From Oscillospiraceae bacterium (GTDB taxonomy: Bacteria; Bacillota; Clostridia; Oscillospirales; Ruminococcaceae): 34,708 bases of DNA. The stretch lies in NCBI GenBank assembly GCA_031551695.1, contig JAVBNG010000056.1:1-34708 (forward strand), read 5' to 3'. The notes beneath the pieces are model-generated. The model did not search any database, was not told the origin of the DNA, and worked only from the letters and a program-made list of their open reading frames with translations. Of the stretch, positions 2,854 to 34,393 are shown one piece after another (the first letter of the stretch is position 1; every line of letters begins with the position of its first letter). The translations under genes and the position numbers were made by a program.

Positions 2854-2866
2854 ATTAGACAAAAAA

Positions 2867-2888
2867 CCGCCGCAGATTCCTGCGGCGG
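2867..2888. repeat. 22-bp palindromic hairpin element ccgccgcagattcctgcggcgg, copy 1
   Basis: Perfect 9-bp stem with a 4-nt loop. An identical copy lies at 3065-3086. On the minus strand it is followed by a T6 run, which is terminator-like. Confidence 0.6.
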
Positions 2889-3064
2889 CAAGGCTGTCAA
2901 AGAACGCATGAGCGCACAGGGGCCGGGGAACGCATAAGCTTATCGTCAGCCGCAAGCCGAATCGTGAACAACATTCCTTCGTTGTGCACGAAGCGGCGCG
3001 GAAGGTAGATGAGCGTTGCGTCGCCGGACACTGCGCGCGGGCTAATCTTTTTTTGACAAGCTGA

Positions 3065-3086
3065 CCGCCGCAGATTCCTGCGGCGG
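3065..3086. repeat. 22-bp palindromic hairpin element ccgccgcagattcctgcggcgg, copy 2
   Basis: Identical to 2867-2888 and in direct orientation 198 bp away. It lies 34 nt downstream of the minus-strand kinase stop. Confidence 0.6.
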
Positions 3087-3119
3087 CATATGGCGCTGTA
3101 AACATGCCCGTGAACCGTT

Positions 3120-5204
3120 TTACAAAGCCGCCTCGGCGCCCGGCACCTCCTCGGCAACAATTTGCGCCGGGGAAAGAAAGCGCAGCAACACACGGTCTAT
3201 CTCGCTGATTTCGATCGGCTTCGAAATGTAGTCGCTCATGCCGCCGTTAAGGTATAATTCCCGCATGCCCTTTATGGCGTTCGCAGTGAGGGCCACGATG
3301 GGCGTGTCCTTGTTTTTGGCCGACGACTGCCGGATTCTTTTCGTGGTTTCAATGCCGTCCATATTGGGCATCATATGGTCCATAAAAATGATGTCATACT
3401 GCTTTTTATCTCCCATTTCGCAGGCTTTCAGTCCGCTTCGCGCAACGTCCGGCACAATGCCGTAGTGCTGCAGGATCTCTGCGCATACGATCAGGTTGAT
3501 CTCGTTGTCGTCCACCACCAGCGCTTCGGTGTTCCGCAGCTTGAAGCGGCCGATTTTCACCTGCCGCCCCGCCGTTTCCACTTCGCAGTTTCCGCCGGCG
3601 CAAAGGCGTTTTACCAATGCGGGAACCAGCAAGGGTTCGTAGATAAAATCCACATTTGCCGCCAGCATGGCCTCTTCCGCCTCTTGCAGGGCCAAAACAG
3701 CCGTCAGCCGCGCCGCGCCGAAACGCGCGGGGTTTTCGGCCACGGCGGCGGACCATGCCCCATAATCGTAAAACACGTGGGTGAACGCGCCGGTTTCGCC
3801 CCCCAGCTCGTCCGGCGCATACACAAAGCGCACCGGCACGCCCAGCCGCTCGAAGACAGGGCGACAAAAGGCACAGTGCCGCCCGCACAAAACCAGCACC
3901 CGGCAGTTTTCATCAATGGCGGAAAGGTCCGCCACCACGCCCTTGCCCTCATCTTTTTGCAACACAGAAAAGGAAAATGTGCTGCCCTCGCCAAATTTCG
4001 TCTGCACGGCAAGTTCACCGCCCATCATCTCCACAATGTGCTTCGAGATGGCAAGGCCAAGCCCCGTGCCCTCGTGGGTGCGGTTTTTGGGCAGGTCCAG
4101 CCGGCTGAACGCGTTAAACATGTGGGGCGCGTCCTCCTCGCGGATGCCCGCGCCGGTGTCCCGCACGGTAAAAGTGAGGCGCGCGTTGCCGTCTTCGGCC
4201 GCCTCGCTTTCAATGCTGAAATACACATGGCCTTCGTCCGTGAACTTGATGGCGTTGTTGATCAGGTTCAAAAGCACCTGCTTCAGGCGCAGTTCGTCGC
4301 CGAACATGGCGGCGGGCAGCGCCGGGAAGATGTCGGCCACAAAGCCAAGGCCCTTGTTCGCTGCCTTCAGATTCATAATGCCGGCCACGTCGTTCACAAA
4401 AGACATGCTGTCATAGCTCGCAGGGCTAAGCTCCATTTTTTCCGCGTCCAGCTTTGAATAATCCAGGATGTCGTTGATGATTTTGAGTAAGTTGGACGAC
4501 GCCGACTGGATATTGGCAAGGTATTTGACCTGTATATTGTCAAGGGCCGTTGCGGCCATCAGATCCGCCATACCCTTGATGGCGTTCATTGGCGTGCGAA
4601 TCTCATGGCTCATATTGGCCAAAAACGCGCTTTTGGCCGAGGAAGATTGCTCTGCCTTTTCCTTCAGCAGGTTTATTTCGGTCATGTCGTGCAGCACCAC
4701 CACCACGCCCATGCAAAGGCCGGCCGGGTCAATGGCGGGGGAAACGGTCACGTTCATATGCAGGCTGTCCCCGTTTGTGTCCACCAGCTTGCCGTTGTAC
4801 TTTTGGCGCGTTTTTTCTTCCATCACGCTGTGGCACACAGTTTCCAGCTGCGTAATCCACGTGTCGGGAAAACGACGGCCAAACACAACGCGCAAAGGTT
4901 TATCCCGTAAATCGTTCATGCTGGAATAATGCAGCTGGCCATAGCTTACCTCTGTGCCAAGAATGAAATGCAGCGCCGCGTCCAGCACGAAAATCATATC
5001 CGGGCAGTTGGCTAAAAGCAGCTGGTTGTATAAAAACTGCCGCTCCTTTTCCGCCGAGTTGAAGTCGCGCATGCGCTCGATATTCTGCGTCATCACGGCG
5101 TTGTATTTTTTGTCGCGCTCCAGCCGCGCAACTTTGCGTTTCAGGTTCTCGCACTCGCGCCTGGCGGCCTCATATAATTCGCGGTAGTTTTGCCCGTCGT
5201 TCAT
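3120..5204 (-). CDS. Soluble hybrid sensor histidine kinase: coiled-coil N-terminus, PAS domain, HisKA, HATPase_c, a degenerate Cys-rich pseudo-receiver, then a C-terminal REC domain
   Basis: H-box MSHEIRTPMNAIKGM. DTGAGI and [10 protein letters not shown] boxes. C-terminal ALVVDDNEINL ... IIFMDHMMPNMDG ... TANA. No TM helices. AGGA RBS before the ATG at 5204. Confidence 0.85.
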   Translation of the reverse strand: MNDGQNYRELYEAARRECENLKRKVARLERDKKYNAVMTQNIERMRDFNSAEKERQFLYNQLLLANCPDMIFVLDAALHFILGTEVSYGQLHYSSMNDLRDKPLRVVFGRRFPDTWITQLETVCHSVMEEKTRQKYNGKLVDTNGDSLHMNVTVSPAIDPAGLCMGVVVVLHDMTEINLLKEKAEQSSSAKSAFLANMSHEIRTPMNAIKGMADLMAATALDNIQVKYLANIQSASSNLLKIINDILDYSKLDAEKMELSPASYDSMSFVNDVAGIMNLKAANKGLGFVADIFPALPAAMFGDELRLKQVLLNLINNAIKFTDEGHVYFSIESEAAEDGNARLTFTVRDTGAGIREEDAPHMFNAFSRLDLPKNRTHEGTGLGLAISKHIVEMMGGELAVQTKFGEGSTFSFSVLQKDEGKGVVADLSAIDENCRVLVLCGRHCAFCRPVFERLGVPVRFVYAPDELGGETGAFTHVFYDYGAWSAAVAENPARFGAARLTAVLALQEAEEAMLAANVDFIYEPLLVPALVKRLCAGGNCEVETAGRQVKIGRFKLRNTEALVVDDNEINLIVCAEILQHYGIVPDVARSGLKACEMGDKKQYDIIFMDHMMPNMDGIETTKRIRQSSAKNKDTPIVALTANAIKGMRELYLNGGMSDYISKPIEISEIDRVLLRFLSPAQIVAEEVPGAEAAL

Positions 5205-5240
5205 CGGTTCAATCCTTATACGTTTCGTTGTTCACGGCAT

Positions 5241-6449
5241 TTACAGCGCCATCAGGGTGATGGAAGAATGCAGCGAGCGGCTGGTCGCCTCGCCGCCGGG
5301 CACAGGCACGGGGCAAATTTCGCCCATGGCGTAAAACCCGCAGGAGGCCAGGTCCTTCAGGGCCGGCGTGTTGGTAATGTAGTCCCCTTCCACGCTGGTG
5401 TCGCCGCTCATCACCAGGTAACGCCCGCCGCACGAGGTGGAAAATAGCGTGCTGTATCGGTATTCGTCCGATGTATTCTCCTCAATTTTCTTCACCATTT
5501 CCTCGAAGCAGGCAATGCTGGACTGGCGAACCTGGTCACTGGTCAGCACGCAAACGGCAAGCTCCCAGCCAACAGGCATCTCGCCGGAAAAGGCCACGGC
5601 GCCGGTTTCAAAGTCAATGTCGACGATATTTCGAACTTTTTGCTCTTCACCAAAGCTGCCCTTCGGGTAAATGATGACCGGGCTGGAGGCGTAGGTTGCG
5701 ATACAGCTGCTCAGCATCTGGGTGGGGAAAGTGGTAAGGCCGTTTTTGGCCATGAACTGGAGGAAGGTGTCCTCCCCCACTTTTTGCACCACGTTGCCGG
5801 TGGCGGCGGTGATAACGGCGGTTTTGTCCGGCACCATGAACTTGGCCGTACCACAGGCAAACTGCGGCCGGATACCCCCGCCCAACATGTTGATGAGCAG
5901 GCGGTCGCGGTAGGGTACACCATTCACAAAAATCTCGGAGACATTGGTCTCAAGGTCGCTGGAAGACACCGCGCCGTACTGCGGCACACCGCCGGAAACC
6001 CTTGCCAGGATGTCGGTGGTGTAGTCCGGGGTCAGGTCGGTGCTGTAGGGCTGCAGGGTAATCAGCATTTTCGGCCGTTCGCCAATGCGCTCCAACGCCA
6101 GATTGTACGCGTCGGCAACCACCTGTTCCATGTTTTCCCGCGTCAGCGGCTCGGACAAAGCCATCGACCCCACCAGCTCCTCGTCGCCGGTGATAATCAT
6201 AAAGCTGACGCTGATGTCCTCGTCGGCGTGGATGCGGATAAAGGAGAGCGCTGTGGCGCCATAGATGTCAAAATCATATCTCTCGCTCAGTTTTTTCATC
6301 ACCGCTTCGCTGTCGATGGTGGAATCACACACGGCGATTCCCATGGTGCGCCGGCCGAAGGTGACATTGTCGGCAATTTGCGCGCCAAGCTCCTCGCACA
6401 GGTAGTCCACATCGTTCATCTCACTGGTGCGTGCCGTAAAAACCTGCAT
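5241..6449 (-). CDS. FIST-domain protein (FIST_N + FIST_C putative ligand-sensing module), first gene of an operon with the soluble hybrid kinase
   Basis: The approximately 400-aa stand-alone architecture is typical of FIST proteins. The C-terminal GFYAMGEICP ... LHSSIT resembles the conserved GFYxxGEIxP ... lHNqT end of FIST_C. AGGAGG RBS 7 nt before the ATG. There is a 36-nt gap to the kinase. Confidence 0.55.
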   Translation of the reverse strand: MQVFTARTSEMNDVDYLCEELGAQIADNVTFGRRTMGIAVCDSTIDSEAVMKKLSERYDFDIYGATALSFIRIHADEDISVSFMIITGDEELVGSMALSEPLTRENMEQVVADAYNLALERIGERPKMLITLQPYSTDLTPDYTTDILARVSGGVPQYGAVSSSDLETNVSEIFVNGVPYRDRLLINMLGGGIRPQFACGTAKFMVPDKTAVITAATGNVVQKVGEDTFLQFMAKNGLTTFPTQMLSSCIATYASSPVIIYPKGSFGEEQKVRNIVDIDFETGAVAFSGEMPVGWELAVCVLTSDQVRQSSIACFEEMVKKIEENTSDEYRYSTLFSTSCGGRYLVMSGDTSVEGDYITNTPALKDLASCGFYAMGEICPVPVPGGEATSRSLHSSITLMAL

Positions 6450-6489
6450 GCCAAGCCCTCCTGTTTCTTATTGTATAAAGCAGCATTAC

Positions 6490-6519
6490 ATTTTAGCATT
6501 CTTGGCAAAACATGTCAAT
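6490..6519 (-). promoter_or_regulatory. Sigma70-like promoter for the FIST / hybrid-kinase operon (TTGACA, 18-nt spacer, TAAAAT on the minus strand)
   Basis: Hexamers read directly from the minus-strand sequence upstream of the AGGAGG RBS. Confidence 0.45.
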
Positions 6520-6558
6520 TTTCGGCAAATCGATCAACAATTTCCAGCGCCAAACGCA

Positions 6559-6589
6559 CCGGCCCCCTGTGCGGCGCACAGGGGGCCGG
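6559..6589 (-). terminator. GC-rich hairpin (13-14 bp stem) downstream of the flotillin gene
   Basis: The inverted repeat ccggccccctgtgc / gcacagggggccgg lies 28 nt after the flotillin stop. Its U-tract is weak. Confidence 0.4.
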
Positions 6590-6616
6590 TCCATATATGG
6601 TGTGGGAACGCCCGAG

Positions 6617-8218
6617 CTAAACGGTCGTTTCGACAAACACCGGCTGCTGCGGGGCTTCGGGCATCCCGCTAATGTTCAGGTTTCTGGTGGTCTGCCCCTC
6701 AAATGTTTTGGCGCGCATGACCTCTTTCAAGTCAAACCCCACGGTTTCCTGCAGGGCTTCGCTTACCGCCACAAGGCCGCTGGTCACGTAACCGGCCACG
6801 TCGCTCACGCCGTCGCCGCCGGCGTTTCCGCCGCCGATAATGGTGATTTTATCGATGCTTGCAAAGGGCTCGGCCACGGCCTTGGCAAGCGCCGGCAGAA
6901 TGTCCGCGATGATCTGCAGCTTGCCCGCCTCGTCCATCTTGGCAAGGGCCTCAGCCTTCTTTTCCAGCGCCTCTGCCTCGGCCAGGCCCTTGGCCCGGAT
7001 GGCGTCGGCTTCCGCCTGGCCGCGCGCTTCAATGATCTTGGCCTCGGCATTGCCCCAAAGCTCTTGGGCTTTGGCCTGGGCCTCGCCGTCCAGCCGGGTC
7101 TTCTCCGCTTCGGCTTCGGCTTTGGCAATCTCTTCAAACTTCCGCGCCTCAGCCTCCAGCCGGCGGCGCTCTTTCTCCGCCTCGGCGGGCTCCAGCACCG
7201 TGGCAATCAACTCCGCCCGGGCGCGTTCCGCCTGGCTTTTGGCCAGCTCGATGTTCTTGTTTTCCTCCGCGATGCGCACCTGCACCTCGGCTTCGGTCAC
7301 TTCCAGCTGGCGGTTCTTTTCCAGCACCAAAGCGTCCAACTGGGTGTTTTTCACTTCTTTCGAGGTAATGTTCGCCTGGATCTCATAGGCCGCGTCGGAC
7401 ACAGCCTTTGTGGTCTCCGATTCCTTTCGGTAGGCCTCCACCTTCAGCTGTTTTTCCTTTTCGGCCAGGGCAATCTCGCTCTCGGCCCGCAGCTGGGCCT
7501 CGCGCCCGGCGCGGCCGGCTTCGGCCGTTTTGATCATCTGCTCCTTTGCCGCCTCGGCGGTTTTGATCTGCTGCTCCTTGGCGGCCTCGGCCTCGGCAAT
7601 GGCTGCTTGGGCCTTCACCTTGGCAATTTGCTCTTTGCCAAGAGACACGATGTATTCTTCGTCGTCGGAGATGTCGTTGATGGTAAAGGATTTGATTTCA
7701 AGGCCCATGGTGCCGAGGGCGGAGTCTACCACCTTTTGCACGTCGGTGGAGAATTTCTCCCGGTCGTCGTACAGTTCTTCCACGCTCATGCGGGAGACGA
7801 TTTCGCGCAGCTTGCCCGTGGCCACCTCCATCACGATGTTCTGGATGGCCTTTTTGGTGGCGGCCTCGTTCTCACTGCTGAACTGCTGCACCGCGGTGAT
7901 GATACTCTCGTTTTCGGCCTTCACTTTTACAATGAGCACGCCGTTGGCGTTGATGGGCACGCCCAGGCGGGTTTTTGTTTTGCTGATGGAAACGTTGATC
8001 TGGATGTTTTCAAGGGTGATGGTGTCTATGCGCTGGAAACCGGGAATGACCATCTTACCCCCGCCGTGCACCACTTTGGGCGCGCCCAGGCCCACGATGA
8101 CGGCGGCCTTGTCGGACGGAACCTTTTTCCACGCGCTCAGCAGGCAAATCATGACGACCACAAGGGCGGCGATGATCACGATGGCCACGCCAAAGGGGCT
8201 TGTGAGTAAATTCAACAT
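6617..8218 (-). CDS. floT: Flotillin-family protein (SPFH/Band-7 domain plus Ala/Glu-rich flotillin repeats), FloT/YuaG-like
   Basis: N-terminal TM helix. SPFH core (VPINANGVLIVKV ... ). Long EA/KA-rich coiled-coil repeats (AEAEAAKEQ ...). The 533-aa size is typical of FloT. Confidence 0.85.
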   Translation of the reverse strand: MLNLLTSPFGVAIVIIAALVVVMICLLSAWKKVPSDKAAVIVGLGAPKVVHGGGKMVIPGFQRIDTITLENIQINVSISKTKTRLGVPINANGVLIVKVKAENESIITAVQQFSSENEAATKKAIQNIVMEVATGKLREIVSRMSVEELYDDREKFSTDVQKVVDSALGTMGLEIKSFTINDISDDEEYIVSLGKEQIAKVKAQAAIAEAEAAKEQQIKTAEAAKEQMIKTAEAGRAGREAQLRAESEIALAEKEKQLKVEAYRKESETTKAVSDAAYEIQANITSKEVKNTQLDALVLEKNRQLEVTEAEVQVRIAEENKNIELAKSQAERARAELIATVLEPAEAEKERRRLEAEARKFEEIAKAEAEAEKTRLDGEAQAKAQELWGNAEAKIIEARGQAEADAIRAKGLAEAEALEKKAEALAKMDEAGKLQIIADILPALAKAVAEPFASIDKITIIGGGNAGGDGVSDVAGYVTSGLVAVSEALQETVGFDLKEVMRAKTFEGQTTRNLNISGMPEAPQQPVFVETTV

Positions 8219-8267
8219 TGTAATCCCTCCACTCTATTTGTAAGTTTGTACTGGTTGTTAGCAGTTT

Positions 8268-8996
8268 TTATTGCAAGAGCTTGTTCTTGGCGGGCACCAC
8301 AGAGCAGAGGTTCTGTGCGCGGTCAATGTCCGAGACGATGACCTCTTCTCCCTCTTCAATGCGTTCCCGCCTGCAAATATCGGTGTCCATCTGCGCCCGG
8401 TAGGAAATCACCGCGCCCACGGCGTCCCGTGTTTCAATCAGGCCGGGGCTGTCCCGCGTGATGCGGAAGGTGACGCGGGCGTGCCGGAATTGCAGGTCGT
8501 TCTGCGCAAGGGCGTCTGCCTTGTTCCGCTTCATCGGCCACACCACAAACCGGTACAGCAATGCATAAGCCGCCACGGCCAGCGCCGCCCCCGCGATGAG
8601 CATGGCCGTCCTTGCCGCGCCGGTGAGGGTCTCCAGCGAAAAAATGCCGAAGGCACCCATCACGACGAAGGCCAGGCACAGGCTGTACAGGTTGAACCGC
8701 AGTGGGAAGCCGCCTCCGCCCGGCGGCGCCTCGGGTGCGTGCGCCACGTCCAGGTCCACACCGTCCGCCTCTATGGGAGGCCCGCCGGCGTCGAGGTCGA
8801 AGTCGGCGTCGAGGTCGGGCGCGTCGAAATCTACGCCGTCCAGCCCGCCGTCCACGGAAAGGTCCGTGTCCACGTCCAGCTCCGGGCCGGAATCTCCAAG
8901 GCCGCTGATGACGCTTGCCAGCAAATTCACCAGCGGAAGGCCCAGCCCCACGTAAATCATCACTTCAAACACAAATGCCAGCCTGCCAAAAAGCAT
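8268..8996 (-). CDS. NfeD-family membrane protein (YuaF-like flotillin partner) with an unusual Asp-rich acidic linker insert
   Basis: N-terminal TM helices and a C-terminal beta-rich soluble domain. It lies directly upstream of the flotillin gene in the same orientation, as in yuaF-floT. The ATG at 8996 has a GAAAGAAGG RBS. The GTG at 9014 is an alternative start. Confidence 0.6.
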   Translation of the reverse strand: MLFGRLAFVFEVMIYVGLGLPLVNLLASVISGLGDSGPELDVDTDLSVDGGLDGVDFDAPDLDADFDLDAGGPPIEADGVDLDVAHAPEAPPGGGGFPLRFNLYSLCLAFVVMGAFGIFSLETLTGAARTAMLIAGAALAVAAYALLYRFVVWPMKRNKADALAQNDLQFRHARVTFRITRDSPGLIETRDAVGAVISYRAQMDTDICRRERIEEGEEVIVSDIDRAQNLCSVVPAKNKLLQ

Positions 8997-12293: not shown

Positions 12294-15296
<3,003 letters not shown>

Positions 15297-15341
15297 CCTC
15301 ACTCCTTGAACATGCCCGGTAAATATCGTGCATCCACAGAT

Positions 15342-26771: not shown

Positions 26772-28697
26772 CTATTTTTCGCCCGCGAATTTCCAGCCCA
26801 GCAGGCGGGACGAGTTGAGCACGACGAAAATGGACGACGCATTGTGGATGATGGCGGCTAAAATCGGGTTCAAAAAACCGAGGCCCGACAGCGCGATGCC
26901 GATGACATTCACGAATACGGCAAACACCCAAATATTTTGCTGGATGATGCGGTAGGTGCGGCGGCACAGGGCAAAAATGGCGGGCAGAGCGTCGATATTG
27001 TCCGACATCAGGGTGATGGACGCCGCCTCAATGGCAACGTCCGTGCCCGCGGCCCCCATGGCGATGCCCACGTCCGCCAGCGCCAGCGCGGGCGCGTCGT
27101 TCACGCCGTCGCCCACCATGGCCACCACTTCGCCCTTCGCCTTCATTTCTTTAATGGCGTCCAGCTTTTCCTCCGGCAGCAGGTTCGCCTTGAACTCGTC
27201 AATGCCCGCCTCGGCGCAAATGGCCTTCGCCGTGTACTCGTTGTCGCCGGTCAGCATCACGATATGCTGGATGCCGATGTCCCTTAGCTTTTGCATGGAA
27301 GCAGGCACGGTTTCGCGGATGGTGTCCGCCACAGAGAGCGCCCCCAGCACCCGGCCGTCCTTCACGGCAACCAGCGCCGTGCGGCCAAAGCTCTCTTCCT
27401 GCCGCACAAAGGGCATGATTTCGTCCGCTCCCGCGGGGGCGTCCTCCAGCAGCTTTTTGTTCGAAACCTCATACACCGCGCCGTTGTCCACAGCCTTCAC
27501 GCCCCGGCCAAACAGCATTTCAAATTCGGCGTTGGGGATGTCTTTCATCCTCATCTGTTTTTGGCCTGTTAAAAACGAAACAACGGCCTTTGCAATGGGG
27601 TGGTTCGAGTTCTTCTCGCAAACAGCCAAGCTATACAAAAACTCTTCCTCCGAAGCGCCCGGGGCAACCTGCGTCGCAATCACCTCCGGCGTACCGTTTG
27701 TGATGGTGCCGGTTTTATCAAGGCACAGGGTGGTCACTTTGGCGCTTGTTTCAATGGCCACGCCGCCTTTGATGAGCACGCCGCGCTTGGCCCGGTTGCC
27801 CACGCTGGCCACCACCGCCGTGGGCGTGGCCAGCACCAGCGCGCAGGGGCACGCGATGACAAGGATGGTCATCACACGCATGATGTCCCGCGTGATGAGG
27901 AACGTGATGACGCAGATGACAAGGATGATGGGCAAAAAATACTGGGCGAACACGTCGGCGGATTTTTGGGCGTCGCCCTTGTTCTCCTGCGCGGCCTTCA
28001 CCGTGGCGATGATTTTGCCCAGCACGGTGTTGCTGCCCAGCTTTTCCGCCTCTATCTCAATCACGCCGGTCTCGTTCAACGTGCCCACAAACACCTTGTC
28101 GCCCACGGTTTTGTCCGCCGGCATGGACTCGCCCGTGATGGACGCCTCGTTGATGGCGGCCTGCCCCTTTTTGATCACGCCGTCTACCGCTATTTTTTCG
28201 CCCGCGCGCACCTGGATCATGCTGCCCACGCGCACGCTTTTCAGCGGCACTTCTTTGTACTCGCCGTCCACCAGCATACGGCAGGTGGGCGGCACCAGGC
28301 GAATGAGCTCCCGCACGGCGTTTTTGGTTTTCTCCATGGTCAAATCTTCCAAAAACTCGCCGAAGATCATCATGAACGCCACAATGGCGCCGGACAGGTA
28401 TTCCCCCACCGCCGTGGTGCCGATGAGGGCCAGCACCACCAGCATGCCCGCGGTGATTTTCTTTTTGGCGATGGTTGCCTGCACGGTGGACTTGATAACG
28501 AACACCCCGCCCAGAACAAGCGGGAGGATGGACACGGGGAACGGAATGACCCCCACCCACAAATAATCGAACAGCGCGCCCAGAACGATGAGCACCGCCA
28601 GCACGGCGGGGAAAATGAACACTTTAAAATTAAAAGACGATTTTTTCTTCGCCTTTTGGGCCGCAGCCGCTGCAGCCGGCTGTTTCACTGCTTCCAT
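26772..28697 (-). CDS. P1B-type heavy-metal translocating ATPase with no N-terminal metal-binding (HMA/CxxC) domain
   Basis: CPC motif in VIACPCALVLATPTAV. DKTGTIT phosphorylation site. GDGVNDAPAL hinge. HNASSIFVVLNS in the last TM. The ATG at 28697 has a GGGAGG RBS. The GTG at 28727 from the ORF track is probably upstream leader. Confidence 0.85.
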   Translation of the reverse strand: MEAVKQPAAAAAAQKAKKKSSFNFKVFIFPAVLAVLIVLGALFDYLWVGVIPFPVSILPLVLGGVFVIKSTVQATIAKKKITAGMLVVLALIGTTAVGEYLSGAIVAFMMIFGEFLEDLTMEKTKNAVRELIRLVPPTCRMLVDGEYKEVPLKSVRVGSMIQVRAGEKIAVDGVIKKGQAAINEASITGESMPADKTVGDKVFVGTLNETGVIEIEAEKLGSNTVLGKIIATVKAAQENKGDAQKSADVFAQYFLPIILVICVITFLITRDIMRVMTILVIACPCALVLATPTAVVASVGNRAKRGVLIKGGVAIETSAKVTTLCLDKTGTITNGTPEVIATQVAPGASEEEFLYSLAVCEKNSNHPIAKAVVSFLTGQKQMRMKDIPNAEFEMLFGRGVKAVDNGAVYEVSNKKLLEDAPAGADEIMPFVRQEESFGRTALVAVKDGRVLGALSVADTIRETVPASMQKLRDIGIQHIVMLTGDNEYTAKAICAEAGIDEFKANLLPEEKLDAIKEMKAKGEVVAMVGDGVNDAPALALADVGIAMGAAGTDVAIEAASITLMSDNIDALPAIFALCRRTYRIIQQNIWVFAVFVNVIGIALSGLGFLNPILAAIIHNASSIFVVLNSSRLLGWKFAGEK

Positions 28698-28727
28698 GGT
28701 CGCGCCTCCCTCAGTCTTGCATCCCAC

Positions 28728-28785: not shown

Positions 28786-29837
28786 GCGGGAAAACCAGCC
28801 AGTTCACGAATCACTTGCGAAAGGCACCGGTACGCCAGCAACAGCGACGCTTCGGAAATATATTCGCCCTTGCCGTGGATGCCGCCCACGCGGTTGCCCG
28901 GGTGCAGCGGAAAAAAGCCCAGCACCGGCAGGCCCGCCGCGCGGAAGTGCCGGTTGTCGCTTTGGCCGGGGGCAATGTAGGGCATGGCGCCCCACGCGTG
29001 CTCCATTGCCCGCAGCACACCCGATATGGCAGGCAATGCGCGCCGGTACAGTGCCGAAGATGGCATCCGCGCATATTCCGGCGCTTCCAGCAGTGCCGCA
29101 AGGCCGCTGTAAAAATGCCGCTGCGGAATGTGCCGCCCGCCAAAAAGCCCCGGCAGCGCCCGGATGTAACCCAGCGTGGTTTCGTCGTAAAGGCCGAGGA
29201 CGGCGGCGCGGCGGTACAGTGCCTGCTGTTTTTCCAACGAGGGCGGCGCGCCCGGCCCATCGGCCTTTTGCAGGCCCATTTCTCCGGTTTGCACAGTGAA
29301 CAGCCACTTATCCCCCATCGGCACCGGAATGCCGCCGCCTTCCCCCAGCACAAGGGCCACGCGGCGGAACACGTCCGTTTGCTCCAACAGCCACTTTGTG
29401 CCAAGCTCGCCGCCGGTTTCTTCATCGGCGGTTGCGGCAAACAGCACGGTTTTTTGCGGCGTGCGGCCGCTTTGCGCCATGGCGCACAGCACATGGGCCC
29501 AAACGGCGGCGTTGCCCTTGCAGTCCAGCGTGCCGCGGCCGTACAGCCTGCCGTTTTTGCGCACAAGCCGCGTGGAAGAAACGCCTACGGGCGTTTCATA
29601 GGCGGCGGTGTCCAGGTGGGTGTGCACCAAAATGCTTTCCTCGCTTCGCCCGGGTATTCGCGCCACCAGGCTCCCCCGGCCGGGAAGGGGCTCGTGCAGC
29701 GTGTTTTCCACGCCGCACCGCCGGAAAAAGGCATCCAAAATTTCGGCCGCCCGCGTTTCGTTATGCGCCGGGGGCGTTGTATCGGTATTGACAAGCCCGG
29801 AGAGAAGTGCAATCATAGAAGCAAGCATATCCCCCAT
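28782..29837 (-). CDS. M20-family metallopeptidase (ArgE/DapE/PepV/aminoacylase-like)
   Basis: Motifs HTHLDTA and GRGTLDCKG (compare HxDVV and GRGAxDxKG of M20), and the ATADEETGGELG metal-ligand region. The true start is downstream of promoter B (ATG at 29837, 29828 or 29816). The ORF-track TTG at 29891 lies inside the -35 hexamer. Confidence 0.75.
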   Translation of the reverse strand: MGDMLASMIALLSGLVNTDTTPPAHNETRAAEILDAFFRRCGVENTLHEPLPGRGSLVARIPGRSEESILVHTHLDTAAYETPVGVSSTRLVRKNGRLYGRGTLDCKGNAAVWAHVLCAMAQSGRTPQKTVLFAATADEETGGELGTKWLLEQTDVFRRVALVLGEGGGIPVPMGDKWLFTVQTGEMGLQKADGPGAPPSLEKQQALYRRAAVLGLYDETTLGYIRALPGLFGGRHIPQRHFYSGLAALLEAPEYARMPSSALYRRALPAISGVLRAMEHAWGAMPYIAPGQSDNRHFRAAGLPVLGFFPLHPGNRVGGIHGKGEYISEASLLLAYRCLSQVIRELAGFPA

Positions 29838-29891
29838 CCCCCCATATGGTAACTGTGTTCGCAGTATATGCCCGGCGGGGGTTTCTGTCAA
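29827..29891 (-). promoter_or_regulatory. Promoter-operator module B: TTGACA (29891-29886), 17 nt, TATACT (29868-29863), then the G/C-tract element ATAT-C5-AT-C6-ATATGG (29827-29849) upstream of the M20 gene. It also lies in the intergenic region before the divergent CsoR-like gene.
   Basis: About 65 bp shares blocks with module A (tgtcaagcggg, tatatgccc, tgtgttc, C/G tracts), read directly. Confidence 0.6.
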
Positions 29892-29934
29892 GCGGGCGGC
29901 GGCTTCGCGCCCCTTTCACGGAGGTGACACACAC

Positions 29935-30246
29935 ATGGACGACCACGGCCACGGCCATTCCCACACCCATTCGCCGGAGGATTACCAGCGGATGATCAAC
30001 CGCATGTCCCGCATCGTGGGCCACGCAAACGCCATCAAAAGCATGATGGAGGAACAGCGCGACTGCACGGAAATTCTGGTGCAAATTTCCGCCGTGCAGG
30101 CGGCGCTGAACAACCTTGGCAAGCTGATGCTGAAGGACCACATCGACCAGTGCATCGTGCACGCCATCGACGGCTCCACCGGCGAAGAGGAAAAAAAACG
30201 GGTGCTGAACAGCCTGAATGAGGCGATCGAAAAATTTATCCGTTAG
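29935..30246 (+). CDS. CsoR/RcnR-family (DUF156) metal-sensing transcriptional repressor with a His-rich N-terminal extension
   Basis: Family signature QRMINRMSRIVGHANAIKSMMEEQRDCTEILVQISAVQAALNNLGKLMLKDHIDQC. Ligand positions Cys (RDC) and His..Cys (HIDQC). N-terminus MDDHGHGHSHTHS. GGAGGTG RBS. Confidence 0.75.
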   Translation: MDDHGHGHSHTHSPEDYQRMINRMSRIVGHANAIKSMMEEQRDCTEILVQISAVQAALNNLGKLMLKDHIDQCIVHAIDGSTGEEEKKRVLNSLNEAIEKFIR

Positions 30247-30430: not shown

Positions 30431-31699
30431 ATGAGCGGCTATAATGCGGTATTGGCACGAAATACGAACGACGCACCGAACAATGCGTTGTATTCACAAA
30501 CGGTGGCTTTTTCCCACTACAACAACCTTTCGGCCCAGCTGCCCGCAGACCCCGCAACCGGCAAACTGGTGGCGGGCGGCGTGAAAGAGCAGACACAGCA
30601 GTGCTTCAAAAACATCGAGGCCGTGGTAAACAGCATCGGCCACGTGATGAGCGACGTCGTGCGCATCAGCGTGTTCGTGCGTGACATCAAGGACGTGGAC
30701 GCGGTGGACGAGGTGTACAAAACCTTCTTCCCCACCTATGTGCCCACGCGCACAACGGCCGCCGTGGCGGCCCTGCCCATGGACGCACTGGTGCAGGTGG
30801 AAGCGCTGGTCTCCAACGGCGAGGGCACCATTCCAAACGCGCCGCAGGCGGGCGATTTGATCAAGCTGGCAAACAACACGGCAAACGCGCCGGTAAGCGC
30901 CCTGTCCTCGCAGACGGTGGCGTTCTCCCATTACAACAACCTTTCGGCCCAGCTGCCCATCGACCCGAAAACCGGACGCCTGGTGCCGGGCGGCGCGGCG
31001 GCGCAGGCTGCCCAGTGCCTTGCGAACATCAAGGCCATTTTGGAAAGCATAGACGTTCCGTTGGATGATATTGTGAAAATGAACGTCTTTTTGACGAACC
31101 CGGCAAACAACAAGGCCGTGAACGAGGTGTACACCACCTTCTTCCCGGACTCCGGCATCGCCCGCGCCGCGGCCTACATGCCCGCGCGCACCACCATCGT
31201 CGCCGACGCTTTGCCCATGGGCGCTTTGGTGCAGATGGAAGCCGTGGTGTCCCACGGGGACGGCACGCCCCCGCAGGCGGTGGAGGACCGGCATGGCCTG
31301 ATTATTGAGGCAAACAACACGGACAGCGCGCCGAAAAGCCCGCTCTCCACGCAAACGGTGGCCTTCTCGCACTACAACCATCTTTCCGCCCAACTGCCGC
31401 GAGACCCGAAAACCGGCAAAACCGTGGCCGGCGGCGCAAAGGAGCAGGCGGCCCAGTGCCTTGCCAACATCAAGGCCATTGTGGAGAGCATCGGCCACGC
31501 CATGGCCGACGTGGTGAAAGTGAATATCTTCGTCAAAAACATCGCCGACATCGGCGCGGTGGACGAGGCCTACAAAACCTACTTCCCCGGTGGCGTGCCC
31601 GCGCGGAAGGTTTTGGGCGTGTCCGCCCTGCCGGACGACGCACTTGTTCAAATAGACGCCGTTGTGGCGAACGAGGAAGGGACGCCGCCCGTCGCATAA
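30431..31699 (+). CDS. Single polypeptide with three tandem RidA/YjgF/TdcF (endoribonuclease L-PSP, reactive-enamine/imine deaminase) domains
   Basis: Each domain of about 140 aa carries the RidA pattern (SQTVAFSHYNxLSAQLPxDPxTG ... AQCLANIKAI ... VVKxNxFxxN ... VDEVYxTFFP ... PAR ... ALP ... LVQxEAVV). The three copies are visible as about 420-bp DNA repeats. Confidence 0.8.
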   Translation: MSGYNAVLARNTNDAPNNALYSQTVAFSHYNNLSAQLPADPATGKLVAGGVKEQTQQCFKNIEAVVNSIGHVMSDVVRISVFVRDIKDVDAVDEVYKTFFPTYVPTRTTAAVAALPMDALVQVEALVSNGEGTIPNAPQAGDLIKLANNTANAPVSALSSQTVAFSHYNNLSAQLPIDPKTGRLVPGGAAAQAAQCLANIKAILESIDVPLDDIVKMNVFLTNPANNKAVNEVYTTFFPDSGIARAAAYMPARTTIVADALPMGALVQMEAVVSHGDGTPPQAVEDRHGLIIEANNTDSAPKSPLSTQTVAFSHYNHLSAQLPRDPKTGKTVAGGAKEQAAQCLANIKAIVESIGHAMADVVKVNIFVKNIADIGAVDEAYKTYFPGGVPARKVLGVSALPDDALVQIDAVVANEEGTPPVA

Positions 31700-31833: not shown

Positions 31834-31944
31834 TAACGGATATTACATCTGTTGTCGCCCGTTTTGCCCGGCCATGCGATTGCAGGCACTCAAGCGGCTC
31901 TTGCTTCGGCGGCAACGGGCACATCCTATCTCCGGAGGCCATCC

Positions 31945-33081
31945 ATGAAACAATGCGTCATCATACCGGACTCTTTCAAAGGCACACTTTCCTCCACCAA
32001 GGTGTGCGAAGTGATAAAAACTGCTGTCTTGCGCCACTTCCCCGGCTGCCGCGTGCTTGCCGTTCCCGTGGCGGACGGCGGCGAGGGCACGGTGGATTGC
32101 TTTTTGGCCGCGCTGCCGGGCGGCGAGCGGGTGCCTTGCACCGTGCCGGGCCCCACCGGCAGTGATATCCCCGCCTTTTACGGCCGCTTCGGCGGCACCG
32201 CCGTCATCGAAATGGCGGCGGCGGCGGGCCTGCCGCTGGTAAGCGGGCAAAAGGACCCTTCCAAAACCACCACCCGTGGCGTAGGGCGGCTCATCCGCCT
32301 GGCTGTGGAGGGCGGCGCGGAGAAAATTCTGCTGGGCCTTGGCGGCAGCTGCACAAACGATGCCGGCTGCGGCTGCGCGGCGGAGCTGGGCGTGCGCTTT
32401 TACGATGAAGGCGGCAACGTCTTTGTTCCCACCGGCGGCACCCTGAAAGATGTGCGCCGCTTCGACACCTCTGTGGCCGAAAAGCTGCTGGCAGGGGTGG
32501 AGGTCACCGCTATGTGCGACGTGACAAACCCGCTGTTTGGCGAAAGCGGCGCGGCGTATATCTTCGCCCCGCAAAAGGGCGCGGACGATGAAATGGTGCG
32601 CCGGCTGGACGCGGGCCTGCGTTCCCTCGGCGCCCTGATGGACGCCCGGCCCGGCCTGTCGGGGCTTTCCGCCATGGCGGGCGCGGGCGCGGCAGGCGGC
32701 CTTGGGGCCGGCGTATGCGCCTTTTTGGGCGGGCGGCTGCAGCCGGGCATCGACGCCGTGCTGGGCGTGGTGGACTTTGCAAGCACCCTGCGCGGATGCG
32801 ACTACGTATTCACCGGGGAGGGCCGCTTCGACAGCCAGAGCATGCACGGCAAAGTGGTGGACGGCGTGGCGAAGCGCGCAAAGGCCGCCGGCGTGCCGGT
32901 GGTCGTCATTGCGGGCGACACCTCGGGCGCGCCGCCGGAAGCGTACGCGGCGGGCGTTGCCGCGGTGTTCAGCACAAACCCGGCCCCTCGGCCCTTTGAG
33001 GAGGCCAAGCTGTACGCCCGCGAAAGCCTTGCCGCCACGGCGGACAACATTTGCCGCCTAATTAAAACCGCCGAAAAGTAA
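31945..33081 (+). CDS. glxK: Glycerate kinase (GlxK/GarK family, PF02595)
   Basis: N-terminus MKQCVIIPDSFKGTLSS ... VPVADGGEGT and C-terminal ... GKVVDGVAKRAKAAGVPVVVIAGD are typical of the glycerate kinase family. The ATG at 31945 is preceded by GGAGG. The ORF-track start at 31852 is an upstream extension. Confidence 0.8.
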   Translation: MKQCVIIPDSFKGTLSSTKVCEVIKTAVLRHFPGCRVLAVPVADGGEGTVDCFLAALPGGERVPCTVPGPTGSDIPAFYGRFGGTAVIEMAAAAGLPLVSGQKDPSKTTTRGVGRLIRLAVEGGAEKILLGLGGSCTNDAGCGCAAELGVRFYDEGGNVFVPTGGTLKDVRRFDTSVAEKLLAGVEVTAMCDVTNPLFGESGAAYIFAPQKGADDEMVRRLDAGLRSLGALMDARPGLSGLSAMAGAGAAGGLGAGVCAFLGGRLQPGIDAVLGVVDFASTLRGCDYVFTGEGRFDSQSMHGKVVDGVAKRAKAAGVPVVVIAGDTSGAPPEAYAAGVAAVFSTNPAPRPFEEAKLYARESLAATADNICRLIKTAEK

Positions 33082-33140
33082 AAAACCAAGGCTAGCGCTA
33101 TCAGGCTGCGCCTCGCGCGGTGCATAGCACGCCACACACG

Positions 33141-33176
33141 AAAAACCGCCCGGACGGTGCGTCCGGGCGGTTTTTG
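33141..33176. terminator. Bidirectional Rho-independent terminator (ccgcccggac / gtccgggcgg stem, A5 before, T5 after) between glxK and the convergent isomerase-like gene
   Basis: Perfect 10-bp stem read directly. Confidence 0.6.
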
Positions 33177-33178
33177 CG

Positions 33179-34393
33179 TTATTCGATTGCGCCACCCGGC
33201 CGCCCCGCAAAGTTCCGCAGCAGTACCAGCGGCTCTGTGGAGGATTCGTTCACGATCTCCACGCCTTCCTGCGCCGCCTTCGCCGTGATGAAATATTCGT
33301 CGTGGGTAAGCTGGCCATAGCGCAGCAGCGTGGGGCTTTCCAGCTTCTGGCCGCCAATGGCGCCATACCCCTGGATGCAGATGAGCCCCGCCGCCGCGCC
33401 GTCCCGCAGCACGGTGCGGCGCCCCGGCCATACCGTAAGCCGCCGGGCGGAGCAGCCCGCGTTGCGGTAGCAGATCCACTCGTCCACCGCGCCCGTTTCT
33501 TCCATTTCCACCACCGGGCGCACGGGCCGCGGGCGCATCATCCGGTTTTTGTGGAAATCCGGGTCCACGTTGGCGTCCCAGTCCAAAAGGCTCATCAAAT
33601 AGTCGAGGTTCCCCACCTCTTCCGGCGGGCAGTTCATCCACAGGCTGGCCGGGTCGGTGGTGCGGTCCCGGTGCAAAACCGACTGGAATACAGCGCCAAT
33701 GTCCGAGGCAAACTGCGGCTCGTAGGTGCACAGGCTGCCCGGTGCGTGCAGCACGCCGCATGGCACGTCCCAGCCGGTGTCCAGCTCCAGGCGGAAAGCG
33801 CGGGACAGGGCCAAAATACCGTTGTCCCCTTTTTCAAACGCCGCAAGGCACGCGCGCACCTGCTCCTTTGCCGTTTCCGGCAGCAGGCCGAAGTAGGTCA
33901 TGGGCTCCGCGCCCACATAGTTGTTCATCTGCGCCGGAAAAAAATACATTTCCGGCTTCGAGTTTTGGTTCACACGGCGGGCCGCGGCCTCGCCGTGGTG
34001 CAAATGCAGGGCCAAACTGTCGTAATTGTCAAAAAACTTGGCAAATACGGGCCAGCCATGGTGCGCCTGCCAAATGTCTTCGCCCACGGCGTCGCCTTTC
34101 AAATGCTGCACCGCTTCGCGCAGGGGCACCCGCGCCTTACCGCCCTCGTCCGCCACCACGTCGCTTTGCCCTTCGCTTTCGGGGGCATCCGGCCCGTTCG
34201 CGGCGCTTACCGTGCTGGCAATCCACCGCTCGTCAATGCCGCCGCGGCCAAGACCGCAGGCGTAGGTATCGTCCGGGTGCAGGCGCAGGCGGCGGCCCGG
34301 CCTGCAAAAGGAGCGCGGCACCCAGGCGGGCGCCAGCCGCAATACGCCCCTGCCCTCTTCAAACGCCATTTGCGCAATCGTTTGCCCGTTCAT
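33179..34393 (-). CDS. Cupin-fold sugar-phosphate isomerase-like protein, possibly class I mannose-6-phosphate isomerase family. Function uncertain.
   Basis: Segment LALHLHHGE ... NSKPEMYFF resembles the metal-binding QVHP ... HKPE region of type I PMI. The ATG overlaps the stop of the upstream gene (ATGA). Confidence 0.4.
   Translation of the reverse strand: MNGQTIAQMAFEEGRGVLRLAPAWVPRSFCRPGRRLRLHPDDTYACGLGRGGIDERWIASTVSAANGPDAPESEGQSDVVADEGGKARVPLREAVQHLKGDAVGEDIWQAHHGWPVFAKFFDNYDSLALHLHHGEAAARRVNQNSKPEMYFFPAQMNNYVGAEPMTYFGLLPETAKEQVRACLAAFEKGDNGILALSRAFRLELDTGWDVPCGVLHAPGSLCTYEPQFASDIGAVFQSVLHRDRTTDPASLWMNCPPEEVGNLDYLMSLLDWDANVDPDFHKNRMMRPRPVRPVVEMEETGAVDEWICYRNAGCSARRLTVWPGRRTVLRDGAAAGLICIQGYGAIGGQKLESPTLLRYGQLTHDEYFITAKAAQEGVEIVNESSTEPLVLLRNFAGRPGGAIE

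Follow-up and report, generated by a model that had tools for sequence, protein, structure and literature searches.

Analysis was carried out on a 34,708-nt stretch of DNA from an Oscillospiraceae bacterium (GenBank assembly GCA_031551695.1, contig JAVBNG010000056.1, positions 1 to 34,708; hereafter the window). Its subject is a pair of minus-strand genes, in which a gene for a stand-alone FIST-domain protein lies upstream and a gene for a soluble hybrid histidine kinase lies downstream. An earlier note on this DNA, made from the sequence alone, had described the two genes as cotranscribed. It had also suggested that the FIST protein senses an amino-acid-type ligand in trans, and that a cysteine-rich segment of the kinase could be a redox- or metal-sensitive pseudo-receiver. 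The features of the locus are collected in Table 1.

Organization of the FIST-kinase operon

The AGGAGG ribosome-binding site (RBS) and the near-consensus promoter that had been reported 5′ of the FIST gene were both found, and the promoter is the top-scoring promoter-like site of the region. A GC-rich hairpin at ~6560-6592, just 5′ of this promoter, ends the preceding flotillin gene, and the FIST-kinase operon thus has a promoter of its own. The FIST gene ends 36 nt before the kinase gene, as described earlier, and this gap contains no hairpin and no terminator-like site. With its own promoter, RBS, hairpin-free gap and terminator, the pair forms a self-contained bicistronic unit, and cotranscription of the two genes is almost certain by these operon signals.

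Table 1. Features of the FIST-kinase locus in the window.
Feature	Position (nt)	Strand	Residues	Basis and remarks
Sigma-70-type promoter	6490..6518	-		-35 TTGACA, 17-nt spacer with TG extension, -10 TAAAAT; 11/12 positions match
Ribosome-binding site AGGAGG	6457..6462	-		7 nt 5′ of FIST ATG
Stand-alone FIST protein gene	5241..6449	-	402 aa	Open reading frame, Pfam; presumed accessory sensor
FIST_N	5781-6344	-	36-223	Pfam
FIST_C	5310-5681	-	257-380	Pfam
Intergenic spacer, 36 nt	5205..5240	-		Weak AAGGA site precedes kinase ATG
Soluble hybrid histidine kinase gene	3120..5204	-	694 aa	Pfam and NCBIfam, AlphaFold2 (AF2) model
N-terminal long charged helix	5010..5189	-	6-65	AF2; candidate dimerization or docking element
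PAS domain (PAS_4)	4677..5012	-	65-176	Pfam, 24.2 bits (cut-off 23.1)
Kinase core, HisKA and HATPase_c	3963..4637	-	190-255 and 302-414	Pfam; HATPase_c 99 bits
Pseudo-receiver	3600..3917	-	~430-535	Positional homology, hhalign, AF2
Cysteine cluster C434, C440, C444, C447	3864..3905	-		Sequence, AF2, profile alignment
Canonical receiver REC2	3195..3521	-	562-670	Pfam Response_reg, 87 bits
Intrinsic terminator of operon	2856..2889	-		Strong; 10-bp stem with 8 GC pairs, then TTTTTTG; 3′ of kinase

Two copies of a perfect 25-nt palindromic hairpin, ACCGCCGCAGATTCCTGCGGCGGCA, lie at the 3′ end of the operon. The copy at 3064-3088 follows the kinase stop codon and that at 2866-2890, 198 nt away, is the stem of the operon terminator. 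By chance 0 matches would be expected, and no further copies are present within the window. The ~170 nt separating the two copies gave no Rfam match and no convincing open reading frame (ORF); the Rfam scan of the window as a whole gave no match either.

Conservation of the gene pair in relatives

The FIST protein has ~16 close relatives (46-77% identity), all others being at most 29% identical. The close relatives all derive from a single set of anaerobe metagenome-assembled genomes (MAGs) labeled Eubacteriales, Oscillospiraceae or Anaerovoracaceae. At 13 of 13 distinct close loci a gene for an orthologous PAS hybrid kinase begins 28-52 nt after the FIST gene, in the same orientation, and the flanking genes differ from locus to locus. 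A conserved third gene, for an Hpt (histidine phosphotransfer) protein or a response regulator, was sought in these close loci and none was found.

The pairing is also present in four of five more distant loci, with FIST proteins that are 23-31% identical. A Synergistaceae locus (L020) carries an AhpC/peroxiredoxin gene (3134-3742), then the FIST gene and a PAS hybrid kinase. In a Clostridiales locus (L022) the FIST gene is followed by a 923-aa kinase and a REC-HD-GYP regulator. The kinase of an Oscillospiraceae locus (L023) is a hybrid kinase fused to hemerythrin (6192-8333), and in a Treponema locus (L024) the hybrid kinase after the FIST gene carries Hpt, with a hemerythrin gene adjoining (3436-3993).

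The earlier note took the separate FIST domain as implying sensing in trans. Sensing in trans is indeed the best reading, because the FIST-kinase pair is conserved across many genomes. The separateness itself is not unusual; it is the published arrangement of NosP, the stand-alone FIST protein compared below.

Two further observations were made on these neighborhoods. At one locus (L012, JAVBMP010000111.1) the pair is 64% identical to the Eubacteriales ones and the MAG is labeled Desulfovibrionaceae; either the contig was wrongly binned or the two-gene module was transferred recently. At two others, in an alphaproteobacterial and a Bdellovibrionales MAG (L018, 4323-5168; L019, 5464-6306), a stand-alone FIST gene of the proteobacterial type is followed by that of a secreted CPHC protein resembling thiol:disulfide isomerase, with no kinase.

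Identity and fold of the FIST protein

The protein had been called a FIST protein by inspection, and a check against PF08495 and PF10442 placed it above both Pfam gathering cut-offs. FIST_C (PF10442) scored 55 bits (cut-off 28.5). The score of FIST_N (PF08495) was marginal at 25.2 bits (cut-off 23.2), with the assignment backed by the fold match to FBXO22 described next. The two domains are the only Pfam matches of the protein, which thus has a single architecture with no fused output domain. No match was obtained against NCBIfam models.

The AF2 model of the protein (pLDDT 94.2, pTM 0.92) has as its closest solved fold the three-lobed FIST domain of FBXO22. This domain (PDB 8S7D, 8UA3) provides the only solved FIST structures and shows, like the window model, three lobes related by pseudo-threefold symmetry (bioRxiv 10.1101/2024.06.03.596960). 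It differs in being a substrate-recognition module of a eukaryotic E3 ligase, and is 8-9% identical to the window protein.

The next structural matches after FBXO22 are cyclic amide hydrolases of the Toblerone fold, which have their active site at the pseudo-threefold axis (bioRxiv 10.1101/2024.06.03.596960). This ranking would suit a FIST protein that is an enzyme or other metabolic protein, lying beside a kinase only incidentally. The hydrolases are however only 8-13% identical, with TM-scores of 0.3-0.4, and a kinase remains the partner in different phyla even as the other neighbors change, so that an enzymatic role with incidental adjacency is highly improbable.

Conserved cysteines of the FIST protein

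Residue conservation was measured over 120 FIST homologues at ~23% identity. Three cysteines of the FIST protein, which went unremarked in the earlier note, stand out in this set: C379, in the sequence GEICP, is 100% conserved, C340 99% and C41 97%. R343, E377 and T87 are each 100% conserved. A histidine occupies column 393 in 92% of the homologues, and in the clade of the window protein it is found at 394. In the model, C41 and C340 lie at the C-terminal ends of equivalent strands of lobes A and C, which makes it plausible that the triad C41/C340/C379 lines the central pocket.

Four proteobacterial stand-alone FIST proteins, 16-19% identical to the window protein, served for comparison. C340 is retained in all four; C41 and C379 are absent, as is the C-terminal CP..N.xH hairpin of ~10 residues. 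The proteobacterial proteins fit the Pfam models far better (98 and 91 bits for the one tested).

The cysteine triad and the histidine hairpin of the anaerobe proteins hint at a cofactor other than the heme reported for NosP. The cue is probably redox, a gas or a metal, received through thiol chemistry or an Fe-S or metal center, as suggested by the triad together with the hemerythrin and peroxiredoxin neighbors in relatives and the anaerobic hosts.

Architecture of the kinase

The downstream gene encodes a hybrid histidine kinase with an H-box histidine, an ATPase domain and a C-terminal receiver carrying the DD, D, T and K residues (AF2 model pLDDT 83.4). Two alignments were used for its analysis: A2, the kinases beside the close FIST homologues, and A3, a wider set of 54 related kinases. 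The phospho-acceptor H200 is invariant in both. In the canonical receiver REC2, D565/D566, the phospho-acceptor D609, T640 and K662 are invariant in the 54 relatives of A3. No transmembrane helix was found, in agreement with the earlier description of the kinase as soluble; the top Kyte-Doolittle 19-residue mean is 1.71 and falls within the β-sheet of the PAS domain.

The long N-terminal helix carries the motif RLERDK..IERMRDFN..LYNQLLL, which is near-invariant among the orthologues of A2. The FIST protein may dock on this helix or on the PAS domain. Against NF041832, the NCBIfam model for NahK/ErcS, the kinase scored 143.3 bits, below the 400-bit cut-off. Among solved structures, full-length ShkA matches the model of the whole kinase best (6QRJ; Foldseek, E 2e-29, 505 columns).

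The insert is a pseudo-receiver

Between HATPase_c and REC2 lies an insert of 146 aa (residues 415-560), which gave no Pfam match, even at E≤1 when searched alone. The receiver-like pattern that had been noticed in this segment proved to be that of a degenerate receiver, by homology to a canonical receiver at the same position (REC1), by hhalign and by the structure prediction that the earlier note had proposed.

In A2, a canonical receiver with VDD, FVDW, MISA and KPL motifs occupies this position in five kinases (L008, L009, L010, L011 and L015), and the two of these that were scanned (L008 and L010) have two Pfam REC stretches each. The degenerate form is found at the same position in the window kinase and in L005, L013, L014 and P0123, and the domain is lost in the ~580-aa kinases of L001/L016, L003 and L012. 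When the profile of the degenerate form was aligned with that of the canonical REC1, the alignment ran end to end over 110 columns (probability 86%, E 5.5e-6). The AF2 model of the insert is a (βα)5 receiver fold with a shortened α2 (pLDDT ~77-89).

The catalytic DD, D, T and K residues are absent. C440-G stands in place of DD, the phospho-acceptor position varies, and the position of the receiver's Lys is taken by a Glu within an (F/Y)EP motif. The insert is thus a true pseudo-receiver, of receiver ancestry and fold but without the residues of phosphotransfer. Its family has motifs of its own, namely RVLLL, THxxY (H476 at least 90%) and (F/Y)EP (P524 invariant). Searched against Pfam Response_reg, 28 homologous inserts gave 0 matches even at E≤1.

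The degenerate form is present in 52 of the 54 kinases of A3, from several phyla. A narrow distribution had been indicated by a phmmer search with the insert alone, which gave two true relatives and a repetitive false match (P0122); this was overturned by the full-length alignment, with at least 50 kinases. The ABL domain of RcsC was also considered as the identity of the insert and was dropped, as the insert gave no Pfam match and the receiver ancestry is clear.

The insert could also be read as the decaying remnant of a second receiver, a mere spacer without regulatory role. Such a reading finds support in the least conserved portion of the kinase being the insert, and in the presence of a canonical receiver, a degenerate one or nothing at this position within one orthologous group. 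It does not readily explain a degenerate form that is kept in at least 50 kinases of several phyla with near-invariant H476, P524, RVLLL and FEP, and that AF2 predicts at pLDDT ~77-89. Since the domain has been kept so widely with motifs of its own, purifying selection on a new role is indicated, and decay to a spacer is quite unlikely.

Cysteines of the pseudo-receiver

The 146-aa insert contains six cysteines, as many as the other 548 aa of the kinase together. Four of them fall within residues 434-449, CRVLVLCGRHCAFCRP. In the model, C440 follows strand β1, where the acidic pocket would have its first Asp, C444 starts helix α1 and C447 lies in its first turn. C434 precedes β1, at the end of the strand opposite to the other three cysteines, and a four-cysteine site is therefore unlikely.

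C444xxC447 is present in five of the seven nearest kinases; another, P0126, retains only the first cysteine of the CxxC. In the closest orthologue (P0121, 63% identical) YDLY replaces CAFC, and C434 and C440 are absent as well. The CxxC is absent from the ~45 other pseudo-receiver kinases, and C434 and C440 are unique to the window. Of the redox- or metal-sensitive pseudo-receiver put forward earlier, the pseudo-receiver stood and the redox idea is weak. As the motif is missing from P0121 and the ~45 kinases, a redox or metal role of these cysteines, possible on the alignments, is limited to a small subclade at most and can hardly be the domain's conserved function.

The profile of the pseudo-receiver was also compared with the PDB. 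The best matches were non-significant and were to chains named 'Response regulator' (4LZL, 5U8K, 5U8M and 5VFA), which we take to be RitR. RitR and HP1021/CemR are receiver folds without phosphorylation chemistry that are controlled by cysteines (PMC12632262). They differ from the insert in being DNA-binding regulators with the cysteine in a linker or in the α1-β2 loop, whereas in the window kinase the poorly conserved cysteines belong to the β1-α1 pocket of a domain internal to the kinase.

These precedents (PMC12632262) lend some support to a second input through the insert. According to this alternative, the FIST protein would sense an amino-acid-type ligand, and the pseudo-receiver would receive a redox or metal signal through a CxxC disulfide or a cysteine-ligated metal at the former phosphorylation pocket. 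The placement of C440 at the first acidic-pocket Asp, of C444xxC447 at the N-terminus of α1, a classic position for a redox CxxC, and the D/C-x3-C-x2-C pattern common to five of the seven nearest kinases are in its favor. The distribution of the motif (YDLY in P0121, a single CxxC cysteine in P0126 and 0 of ~45 other kinases) and the far position of C434 are against it. The amino-acid ligand fares no better: for such proteins the experimental literature reports heme and nitric oxide (NO) as ligands (PMC12570481, PMC8846402), and the amino-acid idea is an early genome-context prediction that predates that work. Taken as a whole, this combination is unlikely.

Relation to other kinases with an internal pseudo-receiver

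The family profile of the kinase aligns unbroken through the insert to both 7P8E and ShkA. 7P8E is the best sequence-profile match in the PDB. It too has a kinase core followed by a degenerate receiver-like domain and then a true receiver, although the similarity within the insert is weak. We take it to belong to the AHK family of cytokinin-receptor-type hybrid kinases, presumably eukaryotic membrane receptors with a CHASE input domain.

ShkA of Caulobacter crescentus (6QRJ) is, like the window kinase, a soluble hybrid kinase with the order DHp-CA-pseudo-receiver-receiver, but lacks both a PAS domain and a FIST partner. Its central pseudo-receiver binds cyclic di-GMP (c-di-GMP), the contacts being R324, Y338, I340, R344, S347 and Q351, and its Rec1-Rec2 linker carries a DDR tether motif (PMC6969517). 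The window kinase might be gated in the same way, with the pseudo-receiver tethering the true receiver and the kinase autoinhibited until c-di-GMP binds, which would tie it to a transmembrane GGDEF diguanylate cyclase (1678-2790, +) that converges on the kinase gene from ~330 bp away. The alignment in one piece through the insert with full-length ShkA, the best structural match, would fit, as would the REC-HD-GYP regulator downstream in relatives. In the profile alignment, however, R324, R344, S347 and Q351 are replaced by L, L, A and K, and DDR by Q-V-K. The GGDEF neighbor is conserved in no related locus. Gating of the kinase by c-di-GMP is thus very unlikely.

Comparison with NosP systems and proposed mechanism

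The stand-alone FIST protein NosP binds the kinase encoded next to it and alters the autophosphorylation of that kinase in response to NO at heme (PMC12570481, PMC8846402). Characterized members include PA1975, VC1444, lpg0270 (named in PMC8738867) and BPSS1647. The partner kinases are NahK in P. aeruginosa and L. pneumophila, VpsS in V. cholerae and NosK in Burkholderia (PMC12570481, PMC8846402, PMC6769237), and VpsS is a hybrid kinase without a sensory domain of its own (PMC6769237). NosP operons often encode a regulator with a c-di-GMP-metabolizing output (PMC12570481, PMC8846402). The window locus resembles these systems in having a stand-alone FIST_N and FIST_C gene in one operon with a cytoplasmic histidine kinase, several of the NosP partners being hybrid kinases as well. 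The gene content of the Clostridiales locus described above (FIST, kinase, REC-HD-GYP) matches that of the published nosRPK operon (PMC12570481). A trans-acting FIST protein beside a kinase is thus an established pattern, and the locus is a variant of it that joins a NosP-type design to a ShkA-like kinase, in a divergent anaerobe clade with a cysteine signature of its own.

The differences are also clear. The window FIST protein is at most 29% identical to anything beyond its small clade and has the cysteine triad and the CP..N.xH hairpin. Its kinase has a PAS domain and a pseudo-receiver and lies below the NahK/ErcS cut-off. A tblastn search of plasmids with the window FIST protein gave no match; with a proteobacterial FIST query copies were present, none of them within a nosRPK-like operon.

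Taking these results together, we regard it as fairly probable that the two genes form an operon working like the accessory-sensor systems of the NosP/NahK type. In such a system a small ligand or cofactor would occupy the pocket at the center of the three-lobed, cytoplasmic FIST protein, which would then contact the soluble kinase and alter the kinase's rate of autophosphorylation. Phosphotransfer in the hybrid kinase, a dimer, would run from H200 to D609 in the C-terminal receiver and continue to an Hpt protein and a response regulator, both presumably encoded outside the window. The pseudo-receiver would not itself be phosphorylated; as an internal regulatory or tethering module, comparable to those of ShkA and the cytokinin receptors, it would position or restrain the true receiver. 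By analogy, the output is likely to be c-di-GMP turnover, because relatives have a kinase-fused Hpt and a REC-HD-GYP regulator gene next to the pair.

Several points weigh against this scheme. The FIST protein is only distantly related to the four proteobacterial ones (16-19% identity, as given above) and has no NCBIfam match, and the kinase, at 143 bits, falls short of the 400 bits of the NahK/ErcS model; membership of the NosP/NahK family is thus not established. A distant relative of the kinase (L021) has an HD-GYP regulator but no upstream FIST gene. The kinase could also respond to a signal through its own PAS domain, independently of the FIST protein. The Hpt gene and the cognate response regulator are absent from the window, and the output is extrapolated from relatives.

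A bolder extension of the accessory-sensor scheme, which we put forward only tentatively and consider unlikely, concerns stand-alone FIST proteins from anaerobic members of the Clostridia, Synergistetes, Spirochaetes and Deltaproteobacteria as a group. These may be a distinct class of sensors, in which a Cys3(+His) site formed by C41, C340, C379 and H393/394 replaces heme, for example with an Fe-S cluster or a thiol-ligated metal. Such a site would report oxygen, NO, oxidants or metal status to the partner hybrid kinase. In the subclade of the window, the CxxC of the pseudo-receiver would add a second thiol input.

To our knowledge, the characterized NosP systems all come from Proteobacteria, whereas the window locus comes from MAGs of the anaerobic Clostridia type. 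The locus represents a compact and portable FIST-kinase module of strict anaerobes, and in many of these organisms abundant heme would not be expected. Little is known of substrate binding or signal transmission by FIST domains (PMC8846402), and the near-invariant cysteine triad offers a concrete and mutable cofactor hypothesis. The interest of the locus would rise substantially if the triad holds a non-heme cofactor. In the orthologous kinases the second receiver is canonical, degenerate or missing, a natural series for probing the contribution of an internal pseudo-receiver. If none of these readings holds, the locus is one more accessory-sensor two-component operon.

Surroundings of the operon

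A second signaling operon (284-2790, +) converges on the kinase gene and ends in a terminator hairpin of its own (2823-2855). Its first gene (284-1687, +) encodes a membrane-anchored hybrid kinase of HisKA-HATPase-REC order, with a stop codon that overlaps the start of the GGDEF gene mentioned above. A CHASE4 hybrid histidine kinase of 1002 aa with two receiver stretches (12294-15302, -) is the third hybrid kinase in 15 kb. The flotillin/SPFH gene (Band_7 and Flot; 6617-8218, -) lies directly 5′ of the FIST operon, and positions 7001-8000 show an extreme AT skew of -0.40.

Farther away, a P-type ATPase gene (26772-28727, -) lies near an ORF for a CsoR-type metal-sensitive repressor (29608-30246, +). 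As called, this ORF has an N-terminal extension of ~120 aa, and its start codon may be wrong. The long ORFs at positions 31843-34393 lack a Pfam match, and the highest G+C of the window is found at 32001-33000 (0.69, against ~0.58 elsewhere). The RidA/L-PSP domain normally forms trimers, and a 422-aa ORF (30431-31699, +) contains three tandem stretches of it (Ribonuc_L-PSP), an apparent triple fusion.

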